64,000 bases of DNA from an uncultured Chloroflexia bacterium (GCA_963734535.1 CAVTHS010000014.1:256001-320000), one strand, 5' to 3'; numbered from the stretch's first letter, positions 12,298 to 26,832 are shown. Notes: generated by a model not told the origin, from the sequence alone. A program made the numbers and translations.

Positions 12298-14757
12298 ATG
12301 AAGCGATCGAGTCGAACGCGCCTGTCTCCGCGGCCGCGGCTCCAGGCACGTCCATCGCGCCCGGGGATGTCCCGGTGGGTCGTCCAGACTGCCTCGTCGG
12401 GCTCGCTCGTCAGGTTCGCGACACCGCTGATCGCGCTCGCGATCGCGCTCTCCTCGTTCCTCCTGTTCGCGATCGAGCTGATCGTTGGAAGGCTCGTCCT
12501 CCCGGTCTTCGGTGGCGCACCGGCGTCATGGGCGACGGTGCTCGTCTTCTTCCAGGGAGTCCTGCTACTCGGCTATCTGTACGGACATCTGTCTGCCAGC
12601 AGGCTGGAGCCGCGACGCGCCGCCGCGCTCCACGTGGCGCTGGTAGTCGTCGCACTCGCGGCTCTTGCGCTGGCACCGGCCCAGCTGAGCGCCGTCCACG
12701 ATCCGACCATGCATCCGATCGCGGATTTGCTCAAGACGCTCGTGCTGGTCGTTGGGCTACCGGCGTTCCTGCTCACCACGACCACACCGCTCCTCTCGTC
12801 CTGGTATGCGCGTCTGGGCGGCGCGCGCCCTGACCCGTACTGGCTCTACGCGGCGAGCAACGGCGCCTCGTTTGCAGCGCTCCTGCTCTACCCGCTGGTC
12901 ATCCAACCGGCGCTCGGTCTCACCGACCAGCGATCCAGCTGGTCGACCGGCTTCGTGGTGCTCGGCGGGGTTCTTGTCATCGTCGCGATCATCGCCCAGC
13001 TGGGGATGACCCGGGCCGGTCGAGGGGGCGTAGCGCGGCCGCGCCACCAAGCGGGCACAGCCGAGGCACTTCCCCGAGAGGCTGAGCCGACGGACTCGAC
13101 CGGGCTGCCCGAGGTTCGATCCTCGGGTGGGGCGCTTGAAGGCATCGGAGCCGTGCGCCGGGTGCGCTGGCTCATGCTTGCTGCCATCCCGTCGGGCCTG
13201 CTCGCCGCCGTCACGAACCTGGTCGCCACAGACCTCGTGAGCGCGCCACTCCTGTGGGTCGGCCCGCTCGCCATCTACCTGCTTACGTTCGTGCTCGTCT
13301 TTTCGCCGCGCCTCCGCGTCGTGGTCCCGGCGGCGGTCGGGTTGGCCCCTGTCGCAGTGACCCTGCTCTGGGTCCCGCTCGGCTCGGCGGGCATCTGGCC
13401 CGTTGCCCCGCTCGTCGTCATCGCGTACGTCGGCTTCGCCGTCGTGGCGACCGCGCTTCACGGACGGCTCGCCGACGACCGACCGGAAGCCCGCCATCTC
13501 ACCGACTTCTACCTGGTACTGGCCGCGGGCGGCGTGATCGGTGGCGCCTTCGTCGGAATCCTCGCCCCGGTCGCCTTCTCGGGGATCTGGGAGTTCCCGA
13601 TCCTGCTGATCGCCACGCTTGTTGCGCTGGCGTGGTCGATTCCGGCGTCCGCTTCGAGGACCGAAGGGTCGGTTCCCGACGGTTCTTCCGAGCGGGCGGG
13701 TCGGGCGCCCCGCCGGCTTCGACTCCGACCGTTCGTGTCCGGTGCCCACCTTCGACTGATCCCCTACGGCATTGTGGCCACTCTGCTGGCTCTCGCGATC
13801 GCACCCGTCAGCGGGATCGGCCTCGAGGTGGCCCTCCGGTGGCTCGCGGTCGGAGGCCTCCTGCTCCTGGTCGGGGGCCAGCCACGCTTCTTCGCGCTGG
13901 CGACAGGGCTCGTGCTTGTGCTCGCCACCTTTGTTCTTCCGGGCCCGGTGCGCTTCCAGGAACGTTCGTTCTTCGGGGTGACCCGTGTGCTCGTGGCTCC
14001 GGATGGGCGATCCATCCAGCTGATGCACGGCAATACGCTCCACGGCCTGCAGGCGACGAATCCCGCGCTCCGCCGCGAACCGACGGCCTACTACGTGCGA
14101 ACGGGTCCCGCCGGCGATGTCTTCACGGTTATGCGCGAGCGTGCCGCGGGGCTCGGGCGTCCGATGATCGTGGGCATCGCGGGGCTCGGCGCAGGCGGGT
14201 TGGCGACGTACGCGGAGCTGGGTGACCAGTTCTCGTTCTACGAGATCGACCCCGTGGTCGTCCGGGTTGCCACCGATCCGGCGATGTTCACCTTCCTCGC
14301 GGACACGCCGACGCCGGCGTCGATCGTGCTCGGGGACGCGCGCCTCTCGCTTCGCGCCGTGCCCGACGGCACGCACGACATGCTCGTGATGGACGCATTC
14401 TCATCCGACTCGCCGCCCGCTCATCTCCTGACAGTTGAAGCGATGCGCGAGGCGATGCGCACGCTCGCACCGGGCGGCCTGTTGGTCGTCCACGTGTCGA
14501 ATCGCTACTACGACCTTGCGCCGGCGGTCGCGGGGGCGGCGAAAGCACTCGGGCTCACCTCGCTGCAACGCGCGTACACGCCGTCGACCGCCGATGTCGA
14601 ACGCCTGCTTGCCACCCCGTCCATCTGGGTTGTCGTGGGTCGAACACAAGCCGACGTCGCGCCCCTAACGTCTCGTGGCTGGACCCCGATTGATCCGGCA
14701 TCTCCCCTGACTGACGACAACGCGGACCTTCTGCGTCTGCTCTTCCTCTGGCGTTAG
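12298..14757 (+). CDS. Fused multi-TM / spermidine-synthase-like methyltransferase
   Basis: N-terminal TM domain (FFQGVLLLGYLYGH, DPYWLYAASNGAS) plus C-terminal LMHGNTLHG, GLGAGGLA, YEIDP, GDAR and MDAFSSD. Confidence 0.85.
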   Translation: MKRSSRTRLSPRPRLQARPSRPGMSRWVVQTASSGSLVRFATPLIALAIALSSFLLFAIELIVGRLVLPVFGGAPASWATVLVFFQGVLLLGYLYGHLSASRLEPRRAAALHVALVVVALAALALAPAQLSAVHDPTMHPIADLLKTLVLVVGLPAFLLTTTTPLLSSWYARLGGARPDPYWLYAASNGASFAALLLYPLVIQPALGLTDQRSSWSTGFVVLGGVLVIVAIIAQLGMTRAGRGGVARPRHQAGTAEALPREAEPTDSTGLPEVRSSGGALEGIGAVRRVRWLMLAAIPSGLLAAVTNLVATDLVSAPLLWVGPLAIYLLTFVLVFSPRLRVVVPAAVGLAPVAVTLLWVPLGSAGIWPVAPLVVIAYVGFAVVATALHGRLADDRPEARHLTDFYLVLAAGGVIGGAFVGILAPVAFSGIWEFPILLIATLVALAWSIPASASRTEGSVPDGSSERAGRAPRRLRLRPFVSGAHLRLIPYGIVATLLALAIAPVSGIGLEVALRWLAVGGLLLLVGGQPRFFALATGLVLVLATFVLPGPVRFQERSFFGVTRVLVAPDGRSIQLMHGNTLHGLQATNPALRREPTAYYVRTGPAGDVFTVMRERAAGLGRPMIVGIAGLGAGGLATYAELGDQFSFYEIDPVVVRVATDPAMFTFLADTPTPASIVLGDARLSLRAVPDGTHDMLVMDAFSSDSPPAHLLTVEAMREAMRTLAPGGLLVVHVSNRYYDLAPAVAGAAKALGLTSLQRAYTPSTADVERLLATPSIWVVVGRTQADVAPLTSRGWTPIDPASPLTDDNADLLRLLFLWR

Positions 14758-16028
14758 CCAGGCCGGAACGCTCCGCCCGAGAGGGCCTGGTGGTGCTGCA
14801 CCGGACGCGCCCACAGGAGAAGGGCGACGCCTGCCGTCGCCGCCAGGATCACGAGCGATCCTGCGATCCCGACCGGGCCACCGAGGGGAATGAACGAACC
14901 CGGGACTGCCGACGGCGGGATCGCGGCGACAAGGTTGGCCGTCGTCGCCACCGCGAGCACAGCCCAAGCCGCCGCGCGGGCTCGACCTGACATCGCGGCC
15001 GCCAGGAAGATCACGGCCCCGTACGAGTAGCGCTCGTGCATCGTCGTCAGGAGACAGAACGCGACGAGCACCGATGCCGCCAGTCCGAGGAGCAGCCCGT
15101 CGCGCGTCGGCCGCCGCAGAACGGCAAGGAACACCGCCAATTCGCCGAGCGCGGCCAGCGCGTACCCGATCAGGCGTGGCGTCAGCGGGCCGATGAGCCG
15201 TCCCGTGTCGGCAAGGAAGTCCCCGCCCGTGGCCGGTTCCTGGACCAGCCACCAGGCATTCCAGGCTCGGAGCGAGAGCACCGCAAATGGTCCGTTCTGA
15301 TAGCCACCGAGATTGTCCAGGTAGCGCGACGGACCGCCGTCGGCGAGGAAGGGGAGCCACACGACGGCCGCCACGCCGCCCGTGACGATCCCAAGGACCG
15401 CGGCCCGGCGCCACCCGTAGCGTCCGAGCGCGTAGGCGGCAAACGGAACAAGAAACGGGAGTGCCTGCGGCTTCGCCATGACCGCCAGTCCAAGGATCAC
15501 CGCGGCCGGGATCGGGCGGTCGGCGAGCACGAGGATCACCGCCAGCAGCCCCAGCAACACGTAGATCGATTCGAACTGCCCCCACCAGGCGCTCACGTAC
15601 CAGGTGAGCGGCAGGAACGCGACGGCCAGCGCCGCGCCGATCGCCCAGCGCGGCCGCGCGCGGAGCAGGTATGCGACCCCGAGCGCGAGCCCGATGTCCG
15701 CGACCGCCGCAGGGAGCTTGATCGCGATCCGCGCCGCGAGGTCACCTGCATCCGTGGCGGTGCCGAAGGCAGGCACGAGATGCGCCAGCGCCCAGAAGAT
15801 GTAGACCATGACCGGCGGGAACGAGAGATCGAGCCGGTACGCGTCCCCGAGCGGGAGCCCCGTCGCGAGCTGATGAACCCACCCGACGAACTGGTCCGTG
15901 TCCGCGCGCAGCCCCACCGCCGGAAGAAGCGCGAGCCGGAGGACGGCCGCGGCGACGAGCCCGACGGTGAGCCAGGCACGCTCGCGGCGGGACCACGCGC
16001 CACTGCTCGCCGGAAGGCCCGCATCCAT
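14754..16028 (-). CDS. Multi-pass GT-C glycosyltransferase (GT87/ALG-like)
   Basis: ADTDQF, SFPP, IKLPA, SAWWGQFE, MAKPQ and MHERY motifs. Confidence 0.75.
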   Translation of the reverse strand: MDAGLPASSGAWSRRERAWLTVGLVAAAVLRLALLPAVGLRADTDQFVGWVHQLATGLPLGDAYRLDLSFPPVMVYIFWALAHLVPAFGTATDAGDLAARIAIKLPAAVADIGLALGVAYLLRARPRWAIGAALAVAFLPLTWYVSAWWGQFESIYVLLGLLAVILVLADRPIPAAVILGLAVMAKPQALPFLVPFAAYALGRYGWRRAAVLGIVTGGVAAVVWLPFLADGGPSRYLDNLGGYQNGPFAVLSLRAWNAWWLVQEPATGGDFLADTGRLIGPLTPRLIGYALAALGELAVFLAVLRRPTRDGLLLGLAASVLVAFCLLTTMHERYSYGAVIFLAAAMSGRARAAAWAVLAVATTANLVAAIPPSAVPGSFIPLGGPVGIAGSLVILAATAGVALLLWARPVQHHQALSGGAFRPG

Positions 16029-16148
16029 CGCTGCAACAATGGGGTGTGGCGCGCCGGGCGGCAAGCCGCGCGGACGTGCCCGCGGCGCCGTCGACGCCGC
16101 TGTTATCTCCGCGGACGGCGCGGCGCCGTGGACGCCGCACAGCCCGCG

Positions 16149-17225
16149 CTACAGCCTCGACGTCGCCCAGTAGCGCTCCGCGGCGCCCGAACGGCCGTTG
16201 AGCCCGGCAACCTTCGCGCCGTACCCGCGGACCGCGTCCGCCATCGCGCCGGCGCTCCCGAAGAGGCGGTCCAGCTGGCTCTCGTAGAGCCGGATCCCCA
16301 TGATCTTGCGGTCGAGCATGTCCGAGATGTCGGCATACTCGGGCGTGATGGCGATGTCGGAGGGAACGCCTGCCAGGGCGCCGGCAGGCAGGTCCTCGAT
16401 CCGCCGGAAGTCGTCCCACCACGCGTACGGGAAGTCCTCGTACCAGGTGACGATCCCGGCGTACTCCGGCCCCGGCATCACCCAGCGACGGCCGAGCTCC
16501 AGGAGCGCCACGCCCACCTCGCGCACGAGCTGGTGGTCCACGTGATCGCCCACGCCAAGGGGCAGGTAGACCTTCTGCGGCTCGAGGCGCGCGATCTCGC
16601 GCACCAGGAGGTCGATCGGCGCCCGGTCGTCCGCTCGCGGCATCGCGAGAAGCTGGGCGTCGCCGTCGTAGCCACGGAAGACCGCGTCCGGGAGATCCAG
16701 GAAGACGATGGACGCCTCGGCGAAATAGGCGAAGCGCTCGTCCTCCAGGCGTCGAGCGGCCATCAGGTCGCCGCCGGCCTTCGCCTCGACAAGCGTGTCG
16801 GTAAGCACGGCCCCCTGCTGCGAGACGTCGTCCATGAGCGCCTGCCCGGCGAGCGGCCGGTTGTGGACGTCCGCCCGGCGGTACCACGACGAGCGCTGCC
16901 AGAAGCGCTTTGCGGCCGCGTCGGCGTCGGCCTGGGTCGCCTCCATGCGGTCCGCGGTGGCGAGGTACGGCGCATCGACCGCGGGGTCGAGCGGCCGGTC
17001 CGCCCGCACGTTGGAGCGGTTGAACGCCTCGGTCACCGGCCAGATCGCCTTGCTCCCGAAGCCCAGCGCCTCGCGCTGGTACGGCGTCAGCGTGCTCGTC
17101 GCGCCGTTGCCCGAGAAGACCGTGATGATCGTGACGTTCTGCCCGAGCTCGCGAAGGCTTGCGATCAGCCCGCCGCAGGAGAGCGCGACGTCGTCGGGAT
17201 GCGGTGCGACGAAGACGTGGGTCAT
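16149..17225 (-). CDS. PIG-L family deacetylase
   Basis: APHPDDVALSCGG, RRLED, GDHVDH and YEDFPY. Confidence 0.85.
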   Translation of the reverse strand: MTHVFVAPHPDDVALSCGGLIASLRELGQNVTIITVFSGNGATSTLTPYQREALGFGSKAIWPVTEAFNRSNVRADRPLDPAVDAPYLATADRMEATQADADAAAKRFWQRSSWYRRADVHNRPLAGQALMDDVSQQGAVLTDTLVEAKAGGDLMAARRLEDERFAYFAEASIVFLDLPDAVFRGYDGDAQLLAMPRADDRAPIDLLVREIARLEPQKVYLPLGVGDHVDHQLVREVGVALLELGRRWVMPGPEYAGIVTWYEDFPYAWWDDFRRIEDLPAGALAGVPSDIAITPEYADISDMLDRKIMGIRLYESQLDRLFGSAGAMADAVRGYGAKVAGLNGRSGAAERYWATSRL

Positions 17226-17366
17226 GGCCGGGGAGTATACCGACCGGTCCGCGGTCGCGGCCGCCGCCGAGCGTGGGCCGCGCGGCAGCTCGCTCGCACC
17301 GTCCAGCCGCCCGCCCGCGGCACGCTCTCCGTCCGCTCGCGCGCGCGCCGCCGCGCGCCGTCCGAT

Positions 17367-18033
17367 CTATCTCGTCCAGCCGCCCGCGCCGAGGAGCGGC
17401 ACGAAGACGCAGGGGCCGTGGTTCGTCGTCACCAGGTCGGCGCCGTGCCGCTCGACGAGGATCAGCTCCTGCTCCCACCGACCACCGACCGGGAGCACCA
17501 GCCGTCCGCCGTCGGCGAGCTGCCTGGTGAGCGCATCGGGCACGGCGGGTGCCGCCGCCGCCACGATGATCCGCGCCCACGGCGCCTCTCGTGGCGCTCC
17601 GAGGCTGCCGTCGCCGACCCGGATCTCGACGCGTTCACCGAAGCCGAGTGCCTCGAGCCGCCCGCGTGCCGCCTCGGCGAGCTCCGGGAGCCGCTCGACG
17701 CCGAGCACGTCACAGCCCATGGCCGCGAGCACCGCGGCCTGGTAGCCCGATCCCGTCCCGATCTCGAGCACACGGCCGCCCGGCGGCGGATCGAGCAGCT
17801 GGCTCATCATCGCGACCATCCAGGGCTGGCTGATCGTCTGGCCCGCCCCGATCGAGACTGCCTGGTCCGCGTACGCGAGGCCGGCACTCCCCGCGGGGAC
17901 GAACCGTTCGCGTGGCACGCCAGCCAATCGCGGACAGGACCCGCTCGTTCACGATGCCGCGCGCCCGGAGCTGCCCGCCGATCATCGCGGCGCGAGCCGC
18001 ATCGAACGTGCGCGGGTCAACCGGCCGATCCAC
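17367..18033 (-). CDS. pcm: Protein-L-isoaspartate O-methyltransferase, frameshift near 17925
   Basis: QLRARGI..ERVL, VPRERFV, GQTISQP, VLEIGTGSGYQAA, GDGSLG and CVFVPL. Confidence 0.9.
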
Positions 18034-18577: not shown

Positions 18578-19216
18578 CTAGCTGGGCGAAGGCGCCGGGG
18601 ACGCGCTCGGTTTCGGCGACGCGCTCGGCTTGGGCGTCGCGGACGCGGCGGCGGACGGGCCTGCGGAGGCGCTCGGTGCGGCGGACGCCTGGGGGCTCGC
18701 GGCGGGCGACGCGGATGCGCTCGGCGCCACCGACGCGGCAGGCGCCACCGACGCGACCGGCCTCGGCGTCGGGATCGGCGTCAGGACGCCGCCCTTGCCC
18801 AGCACCACCGCATTCAGGAGGATCAGCACGAAGACGGCGATGACGCCGATCACGAAGATCCCCGACGCACGGTCGTCGACGTGCACCGCGATGTCGGACG
18901 CGGTCTGGGCTCGTGCCGGCGTGGCGGGCCCCCCGCCGCGAGGGCCACGGCCCGGTGCGCGGCTGGTGGCGCTTGCTCGCCCGGCGCGCGCGGTGGTCGA
19001 CGCGACCGCGGCGGCTCCGGTGACCTCTTCGGGCTCCGTGAACGCGGCATCCTCGCCGTCGGTCTCGTCGTCGAGCGCCGAGTCCGCGCCGTTCTCGTCG
19101 TCGAGCGCCGAGTCCGCGCCGTTCTCGTCGTCCGGCTGGGCGCCGTCGTCGAGCGCCTCGTCGTCGGGCGTCCCCTCCGGGAGCGCGCCGTGCGCGCGGT
19201 CGTCCGGCTCGGTCAT
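18578..19216 (-). CDS. Hypothetical single-pass membrane protein with an acidic N-terminus and a Pro/Ser/Ala-rich tail
   Basis: D/E-rich N-terminus with a 10-aa duplication (DDENGADSAL), one TM helix (IFVIGVIAVFVLILLNAVVL) and SASP repeats. Confidence 0.7.
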   Translation of the reverse strand: MTEPDDRAHGALPEGTPDDEALDDGAQPDDENGADSALDDENGADSALDDETDGEDAAFTEPEEVTGAAAVASTTARAGRASATSRAPGRGPRGGGPATPARAQTASDIAVHVDDRASGIFVIGVIAVFVLILLNAVVLGKGGVLTPIPTPRPVASVAPAASVAPSASASPAASPQASAAPSASAGPSAAASATPKPSASPKPSASPAPSPS

Positions 19217-19421
19217 CGTGCTGCGTCACTCCATCCATGGGCGCCGCCGGGCGGCGGCGAACGCCGGGCACCGCGGATCCCGCGAGCCGGCGCCGGGGGT
19301 TGAGTGTACCGGAGCCCGGCCCGTGTGCGTGCGGAGTCGTCGGCGAGGAGTCGCCAGGCCGTCATCCACGCTCGAGACGCCCCCGAACGCACCCACGCGA
19401 GGCCGCGCCCCCGGCTCCCGA

Positions 19422-21470
19422 TCAAGCCTCGCGCAGTGGCCGGCTGGCGAGCCCGGCAAGCCCGGCCGCCAGCGTGATCACGCCGAAGACCACGAGCACC
19501 GGCCCCACCCCAGCGGCGTCGCCCAGGAGGCCGCTGGCCGCCATCGCGAACGTCATGGCCCCGAAGACCGCGGAGAACCGGAAGCCGATCACCCGCCCGA
19601 TCATGTCGCCGGGTGTCCGTTCCTGGAAGAGCGTCTGGGTCGGGATGATGAAGACCATGTTCGAGATGCCCATCGCGAACGCCAGGCCAAGCGCGAGCGG
19701 CAGGTTGTTGGTCAGGCCCAGGCCGACCACCGCGAGGCCGTACACGGCGTAGCCGCCGATCACCATCCGGCCCTTCGCGATCCGCGAACCCAGCAGGCCG
19801 ATCACGAACCCGCCGAGCAGGTTGCCGACGCCGATCGCCGTCTCGATGAAGGCGTAGGCGGCGGTCCAGTCGAGCGACCCGAGTCGCAGGACCACCTTCG
19901 CGTAGAGCGGCGTGAGCGCGATCGTCGCGCCGACCGTCAGCTGCCCCGCGACCGCCTGCAGCGTGTTGGCGAAGAGGACGGGCTCGCGACGAAGGAATCG
20001 CCAGCCGGCGGACAGGTCGGCGCGGATCCCGGCCAGCCCGGGGACGGGGTCGGCCGACCCAGCCGAGCGGACCACCGGCGGGATCACCACCACCATCACC
20101 AGGAGGGCCGACGCGACATACGACACGGAGTCGAGCCAGAACGCCAGCGGCAGCGCGCTCCCGAGGAACGCCACGAACAGCCCCGCGAAGGGATAGCCGA
20201 TGACGTCGGCCAGGGTCTCGTTGAGCCATGTCGCGGCGTTCGCCGACACGAGCTCATCCTCGTGCACGACCCTCGGCAGGACGGCCGTCCGGGCCGGCCG
20301 GAAGAAGATCGAGACGGTCGTCAGGAGGAAGACCAGCGGGTAGGCCAGCACGACGCTCACGCCGACGCCCGCGGGAATGAGCACGACGATCCCCGCGCGA
20401 ATGAGGTCGCTCGCGATCAGGACGTGCTTCTGGTTCCAGCGGTCGACCAGGACGCCCGCGAGCGGTCCGAAGAGGAGGTTCGGCAGCGTCGCCGCAACGA
20501 ACGTCAGGGCGCCCGCGATCGCCGAGTTCGTGGTCCCGTAGACAAGCGCCGCCAGCGCCACCTGGTGGATCCGGTCGCCGAAGAGGCTGATCACCTGCCC
20601 CGTCTGCAGCGCGGAGAAGGATCCGTTGACTGCGAGCCGAACGTACGGGTGATGGCGCGCCCGGATCGCGACCGTCCGGAGGACGCCGGGCAGGAGCGGT
20701 GCCGTGACGCCGCCCGACGACATCGGCGCCGGTGTTGCCAGCCCCGCGCCCGAGCCGCCCAGGATCATCGGCCGCTCCAGCGCAGCGATGCCAACCAGGC
20801 TCGCCGCGAGGCCGGTCCCTGCGCGCACGCCGCCCGTCTGCTCGGAGCCGGGCGATCCGGCCAGGACCACCGGCTGGCTCGGGTCGGCGCTTCGGAGCGT
20901 GCGGCCGTCCGACCCGACCTCGTCCGCGTGACGCACCATGCCCGCGAACAGGAAGAACCCGAGTCCGACGTCGAGGATCACGTCGCCGATCGAGAGAACA
21001 TTGCGCAGGAACGGCAGCGGAACCGGGATCACGTCGCCCAGCGGGCCCGCCGACCACATGAAGGCGGCGTCCAGGCTCGCCGGCAGGATCACGTGGATGG
21101 GCGAGAGGACGTCCGCCCGGCCGAACCCGGCCGCGACGAGGCTCGGTTCCCAGATTGGCATGAAGCCGCCGTTCACCAGGATCGCCGTGGCGTTGAGCCC
21201 GATCCCGACGAGCGCCAGGCTCATGCCCGGCCTCGCCCGGTTCGCCCACAGCCCGATGGCAAGGACGCCATAGGCGGCGGCAAGAAGCGGAACCCGCAGC
21301 GTCTCGGCGATGGCGACGTCCCGGCCCAGCGCCGCCTCGGTACCCAGGCGAAGGGCGAGCGCGCCGAAGATCACGAGCGGCCAGCGGAGGCGGATCGAGA
21401 TGAGGTTGTCGATGCGGCCGCCGACCGCGAACCCCGCGACCAGCCCGATGATCAGCCCCGCGATCAGCAC
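19422..21470 (-). CDS. DUF5317 domain fused to an MFS transporter
   Basis: N-terminal about 180 aa: GGRIDNL..IRLRW, GLNATAILVNGGFMPI, PLGDVIP and VLSIGDV (DUF5317). C-terminal MFS: GQVISLFGDRIH, AGVLVDRWNQK..LIASDLIR and TLFQERTP..MIGRV. Confidence 0.85.
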   Translation of the reverse strand: MLIAGLIIGLVAGFAVGGRIDNLISIRLRWPLVIFGALALRLGTEAALGRDVAIAETLRVPLLAAAYGVLAIGLWANRARPGMSLALVGIGLNATAILVNGGFMPIWEPSLVAAGFGRADVLSPIHVILPASLDAAFMWSAGPLGDVIPVPLPFLRNVLSIGDVILDVGLGFFLFAGMVRHADEVGSDGRTLRSADPSQPVVLAGSPGSEQTGGVRAGTGLAASLVGIAALERPMILGGSGAGLATPAPMSSGGVTAPLLPGVLRTVAIRARHHPYVRLAVNGSFSALQTGQVISLFGDRIHQVALAALVYGTTNSAIAGALTFVAATLPNLLFGPLAGVLVDRWNQKHVLIASDLIRAGIVVLIPAGVGVSVVLAYPLVFLLTTVSIFFRPARTAVLPRVVHEDELVSANAATWLNETLADVIGYPFAGLFVAFLGSALPLAFWLDSVSYVASALLVMVVVIPPVVRSAGSADPVPGLAGIRADLSAGWRFLRREPVLFANTLQAVAGQLTVGATIALTPLYAKVVLRLGSLDWTAAYAFIETAIGVGNLLGGFVIGLLGSRIAKGRMVIGGYAVYGLAVVGLGLTNNLPLALGLAFAMGISNMVFIIPTQTLFQERTPGDMIGRVIGFRFSAVFGAMTFAMAASGLLGDAAGVGPVLVVFGVITLAAGLAGLASRPLREA

Positions 21471-22885
21471 GGCTGGGCGGGGGTCAGGAAGCGTCCGTGG
21501 GTGGGCCGCCCGGCGCAGCCGGCGGAATCATCCGCGCCGCGGCCTGGGCGAGGAGCGGGACAGGTCGCGACTCGGTCGGGCGCCCGGGCGTCTGCCACGT
21601 CCTTGGCCCACGACGTGCGCACGAACGCGTCGACCATCACCGGATCGAACTGGACGCCCGCGTACTTGCGCAGCTCCGCGAGTGCCTGCTCGCGCGACAA
21701 CGGCCGCATCCGATACGGGCGCGCCGACGTCATCGCCTCGAACGCGTCGGCCACGTGGAGCACGCGCGCCAGCTTGGGGATCTCGTCGCCCATGAGCCGA
21801 TCCGGGTACCCGGAGCCGTTGTACCACTCGTGGTGGTGCCGGATGATCGGCAGCTCCGGGGCCAGCTTCCCGACGTGGGCAATGATGTTGGCCCCGATCA
21901 CCGGGTGCCGGTTCATGAGCGCCCGCTCGTCCCGCGTCAGCTTGTCCTGCTTGAGCAGCACGCTGTCCGGCACCCCGATCTTGCCGATGTCGTGCAGCAG
22001 CCCGCCCCACTCGAGGGCCTGGATCTCGTCGTCCTTCAACCGCATCACGTGCCCCATGTCCACCGAGATCAGCTGCACGCGCTCGCTGTGACCGGACGTG
22101 AAGGTATCCCTCGCATCGACTGCCTGCGCGAGTGCCCCGATGGTCTGCGTGAACATCTCCTGCACTTCGACGACTTGACGAAGTGCGACTCGCATGATGT
22201 AGATGGGCAGGACGCGAAGAAGAGAGTTGCCCACCATCCGACCTCGAGAGGCGATAGATCTGCGTCATCAGCCAAGCCAGGGGAGCGAGTGCAACCCTGT
22301 CGCGAAGAACGTCGGTCGATCCCCGAGCAAGACCGTTCTGGTCGATTGCTGCGTTCGAAGGGCGACCGTTATTGATGTGAAGCTCACGTTGAGCGCAAAG
22401 AACACAGACGCAGCCCGGCGAGCGTCGATACGAAGTCGCCGGCCGGAGCGGTTGATCCCGACGCCCGAGTTCCGTCAGGACGATCTGACGCCCGAACGTC
22501 CCGCTGCGATCGCAGGAACAACAAGTCCCGCGTGGTTGGCAAGGGTTCCGTACCACGGGACCCGACCCGAGTCTCCCGATACTCCTTGTCCCGATGGCGC
22601 GACGATCGCAGCCTGCGGCCTGGTCCTCCCAGACTCATCGCGGCGACGATTGGCGCGATCGACGTGTTGATGAGCGTAGCCCCGCGCCATCGGACTGGCA
22701 GAGCCGAGGCTAGGAGGGTCAGCCCCGTCCAGAAGACGATCCCGGCGAGGACGTCGATTGTCTCGGAGCCAAACAGGTCCAGCCGAATCTGCTATCTGAC
22801 AGGAATCACGACGACTCGTGACGACTAGCACAAGGTGCGCCGACCGTCACGAGCTCGCAATGTAGATGCTGAGGCTCTTAGGCAT
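21464..22885 (-). CDS. Membrane-sensor HD-GYP cyclic-dinucleotide phosphodiesterase; the N-terminal multi-TM sensor is frameshifted
   Basis: Intact GHSERV, LLHDIGKIG, HHHEWYNGSGYP and ADAFEAMTSARPYR. Upstream TM fragments are MPKSLSIYIA (ATG 22885, GAAGGGA RBS), FWTGLTLLASALPVR, LINTSIAPIVAAMSLGGP and VPWYGTLANHA. Confidence 0.85.
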
Positions 22886-22963
22886 CCGATCCCTTCAGGC
22901 GACCGTCGGCTGTCCTTGGACTGTAGACGTACCCGGACGAGCCGGAAGGTGAGACAGAAGTAC

Positions 22964-23053
22964 CTAGAACCCCTTCAGTGATGCTCCCCCAGCAATAACG
23001 GCCGCGCCGATAGGCCGACGGTACCGCGAGGAGGGCGCAGTCCGAGTCTTCAT
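22964..23053 (-). CDS. 29-aa micro-ORF, putative signalling-peptide precursor MKTRTAPSSRYRRPIGAAVIAGGASLKGF
   Basis: ATG at 23053 to TAG at 22964, read by hand. Basic N-terminus and C-terminal AAVIAGGASLKGF. The middle is probably distorted by compensating indels, since an alternate frame gives LLAVPSA. Confidence 0.7.
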   Translation of the reverse strand: MKTRTAPSSRYRRPIGAAVIAGGASLKGF

Positions 23054-23083
23054 CACTGGAGACCTAGCTCCCGTCCCCTGCCG

Positions 23084-23116
23084 TCAGAAGCCCTTGGAAC
23101 CGAACTCGGGACCCAT
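23084..23116 (-). CDS. 10-aa micro-ORF MGPEFGSKGF
   Basis: GGAGGG Shine-Dalgarno 6 nt before ATG 23116, TGA at 23084. Shares the C-terminal KGF-stop with the adjacent micro-ORF. Confidence 0.55.
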   Translation of the reverse strand: MGPEFGSKGF

Positions 23117-23267
23117 CGTGTGCCCTCCAATGGGTTTCCGTGCCCCCGCGAAATCACGAAAACCGACCTAACAGATTGGTCGGTCGGTTGCACTAGTCGC
23201 TCCACCTCCCCCCTAAGTGCCCATTTCGGGAGGAGGTATCAGCGCGTCCGCTTGTTCACTTTGCTTC

Positions 23268-23327
23268 CTAGTACCGCGGTACTAGTCGGCGAACCGGACT
23301 TTAGGCTGCTGCGCGAGCAACGGTCAA
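23268..23327 (-). promoter_or_regulatory. Sigma70-like promoter with a downstream perfect 18-bp palindrome (candidate operator) for the peptide operon
   Basis: Minus strand TTGACC-N18-TAAAGT; CTAGTACCGCGGTACTAG at 23268-23285. Confidence 0.5.
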
Positions 23328-23344
23328 TACCGAACCCTCCCTAT

Positions 23345-26300
23345 CTAGCCCAAGAGATCCTCAAGGTGAGGCGGATCAAGGCCGAGGTCCCGCTGACCCA
23401 GTGAGTAGTGTCCGTACTGTTCGGCCGCGGCAGCGTAGGCGCCGACCAAGGTATAGAGCCGTATCACGGTCTTCTCGACCTCGTCGAGTTGCGGGTCAAT
23501 CTCAATGGCCCGCTGAGCGAGGCGCATCGCACGATCGATCTGACCAGTGTCTGCATCGTGCGTCGACCGCGCGCTCCACGATCTCGAGGTATCTCGCGTG
23601 CATCGATGCTCTCGGATCGGGGCCGCCCATTCTTCGTAGGTGAAGTCGAGGGCGAATCGTCCCGAGTAGATCTGTGACACGCGATCGGCCTGGGCCGGGG
23701 TCGCGAGAGCGCCGATCGACGCTGCAATACGTCGATACTCATGGCTTCTGCTCGTAACTAGGTCGGAGTCTAGCCACAGCACATCGGGGTCGTGATGCAG
23801 ATACCCGGGGCTCAAGTCCTCCGACGTAGTCGGGCTCGAATACGCGACGGAGGAAGTAGACGGTCTGGTGCAGTGAGTTGGCGGCCTGCTCCGGATCCTG
23901 ATCCGGCCACAGCGCGTCAAGTACCTGGTCCCGCGTTGCCGACATCTTTGGCTGAGCTAACAGGAAGCAAAGGAGCGCAAGAGCCTTCCGGCGGATCGTC
24001 GTCCCCGGTATCTCCATCGAACCAACCCAGATAACCAATCCGGCCGAGATCGTCGACATAGACCAAGTCGGCAACTCGACGGGCGAGCGACTTACCGAAG
24101 TCTGGATGACGGAGTTGTCCCTTGGACTCCTTCGAAGCCAGCCGGAGTAGGCGAACGTCCTCTTTGGTCCCGATTACCTCCAGGAGGCGGGCGGCTTGCC
24201 ATCGCTCTCGGCCTCCTGGAGCTGCAACGAGAATGCGAATTGGCGATTCGCCAGCGACGCGGGCGTGACTCAGCCTCTGCAGCGGACGACGTCGATCGCA
24301 GCGTCGGACAGGTCGGCGATCCTCCGGAGCACTGCCTCTGCCCGAACGCTCAAGAGCGCGCGATCGCGGAGCCCGATGGCGCTGACGATCGCCGACGCTT
24401 CGTCCGGCGTGGCAGATAGTCCACGCAACAGCGATGCGTCGATAAGGCGACCCAGCGCGCTGCTTGCCGCCGGGCTAACGTTTCGAGCGCTAGTCGAGAC
24501 GCGGGATCAACCGTTCCGAATGCGAGAACTCGCGAATTCAGTGCGCCAGCAGACGCTGGACGTGGAAGGCGGGGTATCCCGTCAGGACTCCGCAGGCATT
24601 CGGCGGATATGTGAGCCCGCGTCGCCTCGCCCACCTCACCAGGTCTTCCAGCCGCGAGAGCTGTCTCCGGTGAGAAGCTGGAAGCACTCCAGGGAGGCAT
24701 CTGGAGCACCCAGAAGGTCGGCCTCCGCAGCAGTCTGAGAGGCGCGCGTCCGGATCGTCGTAGGCTCCAATGATCTCGGCGCCCTCGACGAGGCTCTCAA
24801 ATCGCGTCCCGGCTCTCGCTGCCTCGAGCGAGTGTCACGTCCAGCTTCGCCTCCGCCTCGACCCAATCGCCGTCGTGGGCAAGGGCCCAAGCCTACAGTG
24901 TCTGCACCGACGATATTTCCGTTCCCGCGGAGGAGCGGCTAAGCGCATCCACGGCGCCAGCCGCCCGCGTCGCGGGTTGCGTGCACGTCGCCTCGAGCAC
25001 GCAACATCCACGCGGCATTCAAGAGCGAGATGCCTTGGTAGTGCCAGTAGCCCCGCCGCTCGAATCGGGTTGCGAGGTCCGCGATAGGCATGGATCGACA
25101 CCGCCGAGGTCTCCGTCGACGGGAATGATTCGAGCCAAGTCATGGCATCCGCGAGGGTGGCGATCGCTCGCCGGTTCTTCCGACAGAGATCGCGCCGCCC
25201 AGCGAACGGCGCGTTCGTAGGTCGCCTACCCCATAAGACGCGTTCATCATTGACCCCATCGCGATAGCAACGGTCATGCGACCGGTCGCTTCCTCCGACG
25301 ACACGATCGATGGCACCTGCGGCAGCCGCGGCTGCTCCGGCCGGATCACCGGCACGGAGTCGTCCTGATGCCACTATCACGTCGTGCCAGGCGCCGAGGG
25401 TGGCGGGGTCGAGATGGGAGGCGAGCTGCTCGGCGTCCTTGTAGGCGCCGGAGCCGAGGATGACGGGGACTGCCGCCGAGAGGACTCGGACGGCGTCGTC
25501 GGCCAGGTCGGCGGCGGCGAAGTGGTACGCCGCGACCGACCACGAGGCAGGCTCCGCGGCGCGCGCGATGCGGGCGTGGATCTGGCGGACCGCGATCGCC
25601 CCGACGGCGTCGTGCAGCCGGCCCTCCAGGAACGTCCGGACGAGCGGGTGGAAGAGGCGTCCGGCCTGCCCGGTTCGGCCGCGTCGCGACAGGAGACCCG
25701 CACCCTCGGCGGCGTCGAGGAAGCCGCGAGCGGCCTCCGGGGTGACCTCGGCGGCCGCGGACGCGAGCTCCGGCGTGACGACGGCCAGCAGGCAGCTCCG
25801 CTCGACGAAATCCTGGGCGGCACGTGGCATGCGCCCGACGACCTCCTCGGCAAGGTAGTCGTGCAGGTCGCCCTGCCGACCGGACAGGCCGCGGATGACG
25901 GTCCGAACCTCGTCGCGCGGCCGCCCGCGGACCACGGACTCGACGAGCCGCAGCGTGGCCGCCCATCCCTCGGTGGTGCGGGCGAGGTCGTCGAGGAGGT
26001 CGCGCTCGAGCGGGTCGTGGTAGGTGTCCCGGAAGAGGCGCTCCGTCTCGTCGCGGTCGAATCGCAGGTCGTCGGTGCCGATCTCGGCCGCTTCGCCGAT
26101 TGCGCGGAGGCGGGCGAGGGGGAGCGTTGGCCGCGTCCGCGAGGCGATGACGACCGCCAGCCGGTCGGGACCGCGGACCACGAGCTCACGGACGATCTCG
26201 CGGATCTCCGGGACGTCGTCCACCTGCTGGTAGTCGTCGAGGACCAGCGCCGTGCCGACCACCGCCCAGGCACGAAGCTCCGCCAGGAGTGTCCTGACGA

Positions 26301-26832
26301 TCGCGCTCCGGTTGTCGAGGGTCGCCGCGAGCTCGCGCAGGAGGCCTGCCGTGTTCGGGGCGAACTCCGGATCGATCTCGCGACCGGCGGCGACGATGTG
26401 ATGGATGAACACGGCCCAGTCGCGGTCGTGCTCGTCCAGGCGATACCAGAGCGTGCGCACGCGGGTACGCCGGCTCCAGTCCGCGAGGAGCGTGGTCTTC
26501 CCATAGCCCGGCTCGGCGATGACGAGGGCGAGCCGGGACCGCGTCTTCGCGTGCAGCCAGTCGATCAGCCGGTCGCGCCGGAGCGTCTCCTCCGGGAGCA
26601 TGGGCGGCTGGATCTTGCCGATCTGGACCGGATAGCCGAAGACTTCCACGTCGTCCTGCTGGGCAGCGCTCGGAGTCCGATGCGAGACGGGACCCGGCCC
26701 AACCGGGACGAGGCGTGTCGGGACCGTCTGCGGATCACGGGCGAGCGGGTGTGCCGACCACCGACCGCCCACCTGGGCGTGGGCGGGGGTCAGGGAAGCC
26801 GGGCCGGGAGCCGGGGAAGCCATCGCGGCCAT
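23345..26832 (-). CDS. Large MalT-like STAND ATPase / TPR / wHTH-BTAD (SARP-type) transcriptional regulator, 3' half frameshifted
   Basis: KIQPP..LRRDRL, Walker A AEPGYGKTT, LVLDDYQ, LRFDRDE, TEGWAA, DYLAEEV and FHPLVR. The C-terminus reads RKALALLCFLL..ATRDQVLDALWPD..ANSLHQTVYFLRR, with BTAD motifs YSGRFALDFTYEEWA and AAAAEQYGHY. Confidence 0.8.

Follow-up and report, generated by a model that had tools for sequence, protein, structure and literature searches.

Peptidase-containing ABC transporters (PCATs) carry a cytoplasmic C39 peptidase domain, and double-glycine leaders precede the cut in precursor peptides. The agr (AgrBDCA), Rgg/SHP and Phr/Rap systems are Gram-positive peptide signalling systems. 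Signal peptidase II (LspA; MEROPS A8, PF01252) consists of four helices with an outer pair of aspartates and 14 highly conserved residues (PMC6952399). For the membrane-sensor HD-GYP proteins of the MASE9 type, including T. maritima TM1467 and S. venezuelae HdgA, the main text of the describing paper expects the ligand to be bound inside the membrane and does not name it (bioRxiv 10.1101/2021.11.05.467447). Among MFS transporters, the DHA3 family (TIGR00900) includes MefA, EntS, Tap, the ryptide export MFS and LplT-Aas; enzyme-MFS fusions exist in this family, since the Aas-type acyltransferase models include an MFS part.

Here, we analyse a fusion gene in a stretch of 64,000 nucleotides from an uncultured Chloroflexia bacterium (GCA_963734535.1, CAVTHS010000014.1:256001-320000), referred to as the window. 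The initial annotation, made from the sequence alone, described a DUF5317 domain joined to an MFS transporter and took the chain for a possible peptide processor and exporter. The parts of the module resemble known kinds (peptide signalling, DHA3 exporters and LspA-type chemistry); its wiring does not. A literature search, with subscription journals and some supplements outside its scope, found no paper naming DUF5317 and none on this module. We lean, with somewhat less than even confidence, towards a reading in which the two halves of the fusion would be parallel routes delivering one peptide ligand to a c-di-GMP-degrading sensor. Three questions meet in the module: what DUF5317, a large family (1,512 cluster representatives at E 0.001), does, which ligand MASE9 sensors bind and what an MFS clade transports. 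If the reading is true, it would add a further class to the known membrane peptidases and give c-di-GMP signalling in abundant soil Chloroflexota a direct input from peptides.

The fusion gene and its operon

The fusion gene comprises the following features:

19422..21470, minus strand: DUF5317-linker-MFS fusion gene, 682 aa (uninterrupted frame, GTG start; domain matches)
20931..21470, minus strand: DUF5317 domain, residues 1-180, five predicted membrane helices and an outer loop with four short strands (PF17248; AlphaFold2 model)
21033..21035, minus strand: codon of invariant D146, start of a beta-hairpin (90/90 sequences; AlphaFold2 model)
20982..20984, minus strand: codon of invariant D163 (S-x-G-D, first turn of TM5; 90/90 sequences; AlphaFold2 model)
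20634..20930, minus strand: flexible linker, 99 aa, residues 181-279 (lengths in intact fusions)
19425..20633, minus strand: MFS domain of the DHA3 / H+ antiporter type, HD-GYP-linked clade, with conserved D299, D422, Y426 and R631

The frame is open throughout and both domains score above their Pfam cut-offs: DUF5317 (PF17248) at residues 26-174 with 80.3 bits against a gathering score of 25, and MFS_3 (PF05977) at residues 284-676 with 89.4 bits against a cut-off of 27. Pfam matched nothing else in the 682 residues. The annotated ORF joining DUF5317 to a full MFS is thus borne out, and the motifs named in the initial annotation lie where expected (N93..NGGFMP105, LGD at 144-146 and SIGD at 160-163). 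The linker is Gly/Pro-rich as described, with 16 Gly and 9 Pro and 48% G/P/A/S; a clearly membrane-spanning stretch was looked for in it and none was found. Among relatives its length ranges from 26 to 137 aa, as measured in 28 of the 31 intact fusions (the delimiting rule failed on three).

A search with the first 185 residues found 188 homologues, one of them the window's own, in target proteins of 375-1194 aa. Both DUF5317 and MFS are present in 119 of the 120 homologues among the matches listed, whose source names point to Ca. Limnocylindrales, Chloroflexota. The window and 40 loci fetched from the matches make up 41 class loci, of which 31 hold intact fusions spread over two families, eight are broken by a frameshift or a contig end and two hold a stand-alone DUF5317. 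A contig of public run X1 spans 19400-21077, including the junction, with 16 differing letters and zero gaps; X1 is possibly the source sample, so this contig is not independent. Because the listed homologues bear both domains, the class loci are mostly intact and the X1 contig is free of gaps, the fusion is real and not a missed stop, an origin that the related genomes contradict. It is a genuine conserved gene, kept across genomes. An assembly error, or neutral read-through of two unrelated genes, has next to no probability: this assembly does carry many indels in the upstream DNA (about 22130-23130) and the eight broken loci could be read in the same way, but the architecture recurs in two families and in the listed homologues, and the MFS clade is found again beside the same partners in other arrangements.

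The distribution survey drew 301 Chloroflexota genomes. Within the class, all 15 genomes searched from each of the two large families have DUF5317, as against 0 of 2 genomes of a small-genome family, in which the 16 genomes gave general MFS matches only, all of them weak. Two homologues, each a single sequence in which assembly read-through is possible, have other domain orders, namely HD-GYP fused to DUF5317 (P0029, 528 aa) and HD-GYP-DUF5317-MFS in one chain (P0037, 993 aa). In one genome two near-identical fusion copies (G005:C13 and G005:C20) each lie close to a contig end and may be an assembly duplicate.

The fusion is the last gene of a predicted operon that runs from a c-di-GMP-II riboswitch through a 10-aa ORF, a 29-aa ORF and a membrane HD-GYP gene to DUF5317-MFS. 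The upstream features are:

23345..26832, minus strand: large AAA/TPR/BTAD transcription regulator, in pieces in this assembly (domain matches)
23173..23258, minus strand: c-di-GMP-II riboswitch (RF01786; 61.4 bits against a gathering score of 53.5)
23084..23116, minus strand: 10-codon leaderless ORF, MGPEFGSKGF, with a GGAGGG ribosome-binding site in front
22964..23053, minus strand: 29-codon signal-peptide-like ORF ending in GGASLKGF, its middle out of frame in this assembly and intact in relatives
21464..22885, minus strand: HD-GYP phosphodiesterase gene with a membrane sensor, MASE9-like (HD_5, 131.6 bits)

Among related loci, the riboswitch recurs at 10 of 11 in one set and at 6 of 11 in another. 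In the HD-GYP gene, the HD-GYP part (21464-22237) is open and the sensor part has small indels in this assembly; in contigs of four public runs, the indels that disrupt the sensor part and the 29-mer are absent. The motif HHExxxGxGYP is present in the window and in 33 of the 39 class loci having an HD motif (41 examined). The sensor domains of class relatives match the MASE9-positive G150 family with 99.3% probability, and the MASE9 profile itself (PF20972) scored over its cut-off in G324 and G150 and was not found in G007, G168 and G122. The upstream gene is a MASE9-like membrane-sensor HD-GYP, probably of the TM1467 and HdgA type; the locus differs from those proteins in its partners, as the main text of the MASE9 paper contains no peptide (0 occurrences) and no DUF5317 or MFS partner, while its supplements may list neighbours (bioRxiv 10.1101/2021.11.05.467447). 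Pieces homologous to the AAA/TPR/BTAD regulator occur at 28 of the 41 class loci; in families f17 and f26 a two-component LuxR-type regulator stands upstream in its place.

The region 22130-25200 is a low-quality assembly stretch with many single-base indels, and GC falls to 0.62 at 22001-24000. The fusion is followed by a small protein (18578-19216, minus strand) with an acidic N-terminus, one membrane helix, a Pro/Ala/Ser tail and no Pfam match, which has homologues at 10 of the 41 class loci. Downstream (14754-17927, minus strand) lie a protein-L-isoaspartate methyltransferase, a PIG-L-type deacetylase and a GT87-like glycosyltransferase, the first found at 28 and the second at 22 of the 41 class loci.

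DUF5317 and the long signal-peptide-like ORF

N93, M104, P105, D146, G162 and D163 do not vary across the 90 DUF5317 sequences aligned. The AlphaFold2 model of the domain (mean pLDDT 95.6) has five long helices and four short outer strands. The initial annotation had placed both aspartate motifs at the ends of transmembrane helices; this agrees with the model for D163, within the first turn of the last helix, and not for D146, which begins a hairpin (146-152, 155-160) in the preceding loop. From the register of the hairpin and helix, the two aspartates would lie close together. MFS proteins have a cytoplasmic N-terminus. As the last DUF5317 helix leads into the MFS, and the loops at 16-30 and 77-82 carry basic residues that place them inside, D146 and D163 should face outwards, and they are probably located on the outer face.

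Like LspA, DUF5317 is a small membrane protein whose two aspartates are predicted to lie near the outer face; it shares G-x3-N on the preceding helix, a first Asp that starts a hairpin, a second Asp within (N/S)-x-(A/G)-D where the last helix begins, and a partner peptide in lipobox-like order, and it differs in having five helices where LspA has four (PMC6952399). When the 14 conserved residues published for LspA are located by spacing and profile alignment, four are identical in DUF5317 (G89, N93, D146 and D163), four are conservative (L144, L159, S160 and G162) and six (D21, K25, N52, G54, D109 and R110 of LspA) have no counterpart (PMC6952399). The spacing between the aspartates, 15-18 residues, lies within the LspA range of 14-26, whereas the distance from the Asn to the first Asp is 44-58 residues compared with 12-13 in LspA. 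A profile alignment of the two families pairs both aspartates with a score of 23.3 (p=0.007, probability 5.5%), which is marginal given the controls. The LspA profile PF01252 gave no match to the fusion protein at E 0.01, and the sequences of solved structures gave none at E 10 when searched with the 90-sequence DUF5317 profile. Fold searches with the whole domain and with its C-terminal half gave, among the matches listed, generic rows and no LspA row. Looked at for the LspA fold with its beta-cradle, the model shows the four short outer strands. An ordinary LspA is encoded elsewhere in the same genome. DUF5317 may work like LspA; membership of, or homology with, the LspA family is not supported by the profile or fold matches. 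Of the annotated likeness to signal peptidase II, then, the two invariant aspartates, their spacing and a plausible substrate gene in the operon hold up; homology is not supported by the matches above.

Two side observations concern the wider family. Among the control genomes, those of the cultured organisms Thermus thermophilus and Thermotoga maritima gave DUF5317 scores above the cut-off. Family f17 (L123-L127) has a further DUF5317 in which both aspartate motifs can be seen; in the same chain it follows a membrane domain of ~200 aa that weakly resembles a MASE9-like sensor (21% probability).

The putative substrate is the longer of the two small ORFs. In the class operon it measures 28-32 aa and has a basic start, a hydrophobic core, the motif L-A-[GSA]-G-A and, mostly, 5-7 residues after it. 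Across 55 aligned long peptides the five motif positions are filled as expected in 36 (L), 47 (A), 53 (G/S/A), 54 (G) and 53 (A), counts that are partly circular because the seed rule required a G-A-type motif. Read in this way, the motif would have the order of a lipobox without its Cys (lipobox: PMC6952399). This is a further difference from LspA, as the partner peptides, presumed substrates, carry no lipid-bearing Cys and only one of the 55 has any Cys beyond residue 15.

Of 39 DUF5317 loci that lack the MFS, 21 have a long peptide with a score of >=12 bits, compared with 0 of 30 LspA control loci; at the other 18 none was detected. It is present at 5 of 6 f17 loci. A 24-aa peptide of the long type is kept at 3 of 7 f26 loci, though DUF5317 was not found in those genomes. 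By gene neighbourhood, DUF5317 goes with the long ORF, and it probably acts on the long peptide. The invariant Asp pair, with invariant Asn, Ser and Gly neighbours, would suit catalysis better than plain binding; that DUF5317 is an active aspartic peptidase is, in our judgement, just short of an even call. The long-peptide genes are duplicated at DUF5317 loci L133 and L154, where the copies are identical or nearly so.

The MFS clade, its HD-GYP partner and the short ORF

The best family match of the MFS domain is TIGR00900 (DHA3 / H+ antiporter) at 206.8 bits against a cut-off of 319.6, and the named DHA3 NCBIfam equivalogs searched (MefA, EntS, Tap, LplT and the ryptide exporter) all scored far under their curated cut-offs. 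As in the DHA3 family, motif A is kept (D343-R344, in 31 of 31 fused rows), as is D299 in TM1. The domain departs from that family in falling under every named cut-off, in its fusion to DUF5317 or HD-GYP and in forming a clade of its own. The HD-GYP-linked MFS sequences make up one branch with support 95/89 (62 rows, LG+G4, unrooted), and a quick mixture tree gave the same branch with support 93. The residues that mark the clade are D/E422 (61/61), Y426 (57/61) and R631 (59/61), none of which is the rule in 24 outside rows. Since these residues are common to the clade, it probably has one kind of substrate; the acid at 422 and the arginine at 631 would suit the two ends of a peptide. A further MFS paralogue of the class (L200-L202), ~607 aa long with ~200 extra C-terminal residues, falls outside the HD-GYP-linked clade.

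The partners of this clade vary by family. In f17 the best match to the fused MFS sits directly upstream of a stand-alone DUF5317 in 6 of 6 genomes and is itself fused behind a sensor-HD-GYP in all six, one copy being frameshifted; the HD-GYP-MFS architecture is present in 120 of 120 homologues listed for this fusion, with source names from Ca. Dormibacteraeota. The same kind of fusion occurs in 7 of 11 f26 genomes (7/7 matches), and DUF5317 was found in 0 of these 11, which are 76-94% complete and were searched with a query that had positive controls. In f65 an HD-GYP gene precedes the MFS in G324, G345 and G349 and does not at the G348 locus; DUF5317 was searched for in the f65 genomes and not found. 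An MFS fragment 98% identical to the f65 type is present in a record of Thermobaculum (L253), a genus with a cultured member. The two genes are adjacent and convergent at 9 of 10 f16 loci, and DUF5317 was found in 0 of 12 f16 genomes. In f49 no HD-GYP lies close to the MFS. Conversely, among 40 other DUF5317 loci fetched, a clade MFS is adjacent only at the f17 locus L142. In the genomes compared, the MFS clade thus follows HD-GYP and not DUF5317. The fusion had been offered as a Rosetta-stone clue to DUF5317 function; the clue is real and points to a three-protein module and not to a private DUF5317-MFS pair. Once the alternative HD-GYP-MFS fusion is considered alongside it, what can be drawn from the DUF5317-MFS fusion changes. 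At 6 of 6 f17 loci an AI-2E family transporter comes next after DUF5317 (for example, L163:4656-5726, minus strand).

The short leaderless ORF has 8-10 aa in the class, and its frame is held although the ORF varies between 8, 9 and 10 codons, carries synonymous changes and ends in any of the three stop codons. It was sought by a rule that required a ribosome-binding site, 7-12 codons and an aromatic in the last two residues, 650-1500 bases upstream of the HD motif. By this rule it is present at 28 of 35 fused loci, 5 of 6 f26 loci and 2 of 2 f65 loci (one genus, with an 11-mer), and at 0 of 13 DUF5317 loci without a clade MFS; a near-identical rule gave a background of 1 in 974 upstream windows and 3 in 2000 random windows. 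By eye, the ORF is seen at 7 of 7 f26 loci (e.g. MLTLNWQF, MLSWNYSW and MLTWNWTW). Some short aromatic-ended ORF lies <=2.5 kb from DUF5317 at 7 of 39 MFS-less loci, where ~5 are expected from the control rate. The ORF was found at 0 of 6 f17 loci by the rule and at 0 of 9 f16 loci, and one-sided looks saw none in f49. As these three families keep the MFS and its conserved residues without a short ORF, the MFS may have a substrate other than the short peptide. In their last three residues the short and long peptides agree in 54 of 84 comparisons, against a shuffled mean of 44.4, with 5 of 10,000 shuffles as high; kin inflate this agreement. The last residue alone agrees in 13 of 28 pairs, a value reached by 663 of 10,000 shuffles, and shows no significant co-variation.

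Standing right behind the riboswitch, the short ORF could be a regulatory leader. No riboswitch was detected at the f26 and f65 loci, which do have the ORF, and this argues that it is more than a riboswitch leader. In the loci compared, the short peptide follows the MFS in three lineages, with exceptions; the independent lineages are few, three for the pairing and two or three against it. That the MFS moves a peptide of this module has, in our view, an even chance.

These data can also be read with no exported peptide. In that account the MFS is a partner of HD-GYP that exports, for example, pGpG, GMP or c-di-GMP, or is an efflux pump under c-di-GMP control; DUF5317 would not be catalytic and would use its aspartates to bind a metal ion or the long peptide in its uncut form, and the short ORF would be a leader that adjusts riboswitch output. 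Of the links that the clade shows, the one to HD-GYP is the most constant: the two are fused in f17 and f26 and adjacent in f65 and at most f16 loci, and no peptide gene was found near the latter. R631 could bind phosphate, and DUF5317 lacks a fold match to any peptidase among the matches listed. However, this account leaves unexplained the shared tails of the two peptides and the absence of the short ORF from all 13 MFS-less loci scored by the rule, it sits poorly with the f26 and f65 loci, where the ORF occurs and no riboswitch was detected, and the invariant neighbours of the Asp pair look more catalytic than adaptor-like. We consider it unlikely, though the leading rival to the reading that we prefer.

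A candidate pathway with two routes to one sensor

In the reading that we prefer, every step of which is predicted from sequence and the model, the long peptide would insert in the membrane and present L-A-[GSA]-G-A on the outer side, where DUF5317 would cut it with its D146/D163 pair and free a tail of 5-7 residues. The MFS, driven by protons, would carry the leaderless peptide across the membrane with no cutting needed. Either product would bind the MASE9-like sensor and alter c-di-GMP breakdown, and c-di-GMP would feed back through the riboswitch. The linker would be only a tether, with no hand-over from protease to exporter. Taken in its fullest form, this would mean that DUF5317 proteins are intramembrane aspartic peptidases of a new family, that their fold differs from every solved one and that they cut Cys-less lipobox-like precursors, with the MFS clade exporting leaderless versions of the signal of 8-11 residues and both products feeding MASE9 sensors; we regard that complete set of claims as speculative and rather unlikely to hold in every part. 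Were it true, cell-to-cell signalling by peptides would act on c-di-GMP breakdown directly, and lineages would keep, fuse or lose two secretion routes that can replace one another.

The initial annotation proposed a serial order, in which one chain cuts the precursor and exports the product as an MFS analogue of PCATs. The likeness is a putative peptidase domain N-terminal to a transporter in one chain, together with G-G before the likely cut in 36 of the 55 long peptides, recalling double-glycine leaders, and the fusion is old and kept. Unlike a PCAT, though, the fusion has no C39 domain, ABC ATPase or ABC membrane domain, its putative active site would lie in the membrane and face out, and its transporter also occurs without the putative peptidase. 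The serial model requires a cytoplasmic cut ahead of export, whereas outward aspartates would put cleavage after membrane passage; the linker varies several-fold in length, most DUF5317 genes lack such an MFS, and the clade is fused to HD-GYP instead in f17 and f26 and also occurs in genomes where a search gave no DUF5317. The analogy is thus not supported, and we hold it to be very improbable.

A serial order running inwards is a somewhat better candidate, and still improbable. DUF5317 would free the tail outside and the MFS would re-import it, together with short peptide released otherwise, thereby ending the signal or feeding the upstream TPR regulator. An outer-face cut is compatible with later uptake, and such a scheme suits f17, in which no short ORF was found and the long peptide, DUF5317 and the MFS are all present. 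The upstream regulator has TPR and BTAD matches, and peptide-binding TPR regulators are described in the RRNPP family (PMC7564271). Against uptake, the named families that come nearest, MefA, EntS, Tet(V) and Tap, are all exporters, albeit with scores below their cut-offs; f17 and f26 have the LuxR-type regulator upstream instead, and the leaderless peptide of f26 and f65 would be left without an exporter.

The two-route reading places the module beside Gram-positive peptide signalling, where a tiny precursor gene likewise lies next to a membrane processing protein and a receptor. It differs in that the receptor here would be a c-di-GMP phosphodiesterase, two precursor forms would share one tail, the processing protein is unrelated and a riboswitch would provide feedback.

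A separate riboswitch arrangement was observed in family f16. Not seen at nine other loci of the family, two tandem c-di-GMP-II-GAG riboswitches at L211:3709-3967 (minus strand) lie immediately upstream of, and divergent from, the clade MFS.
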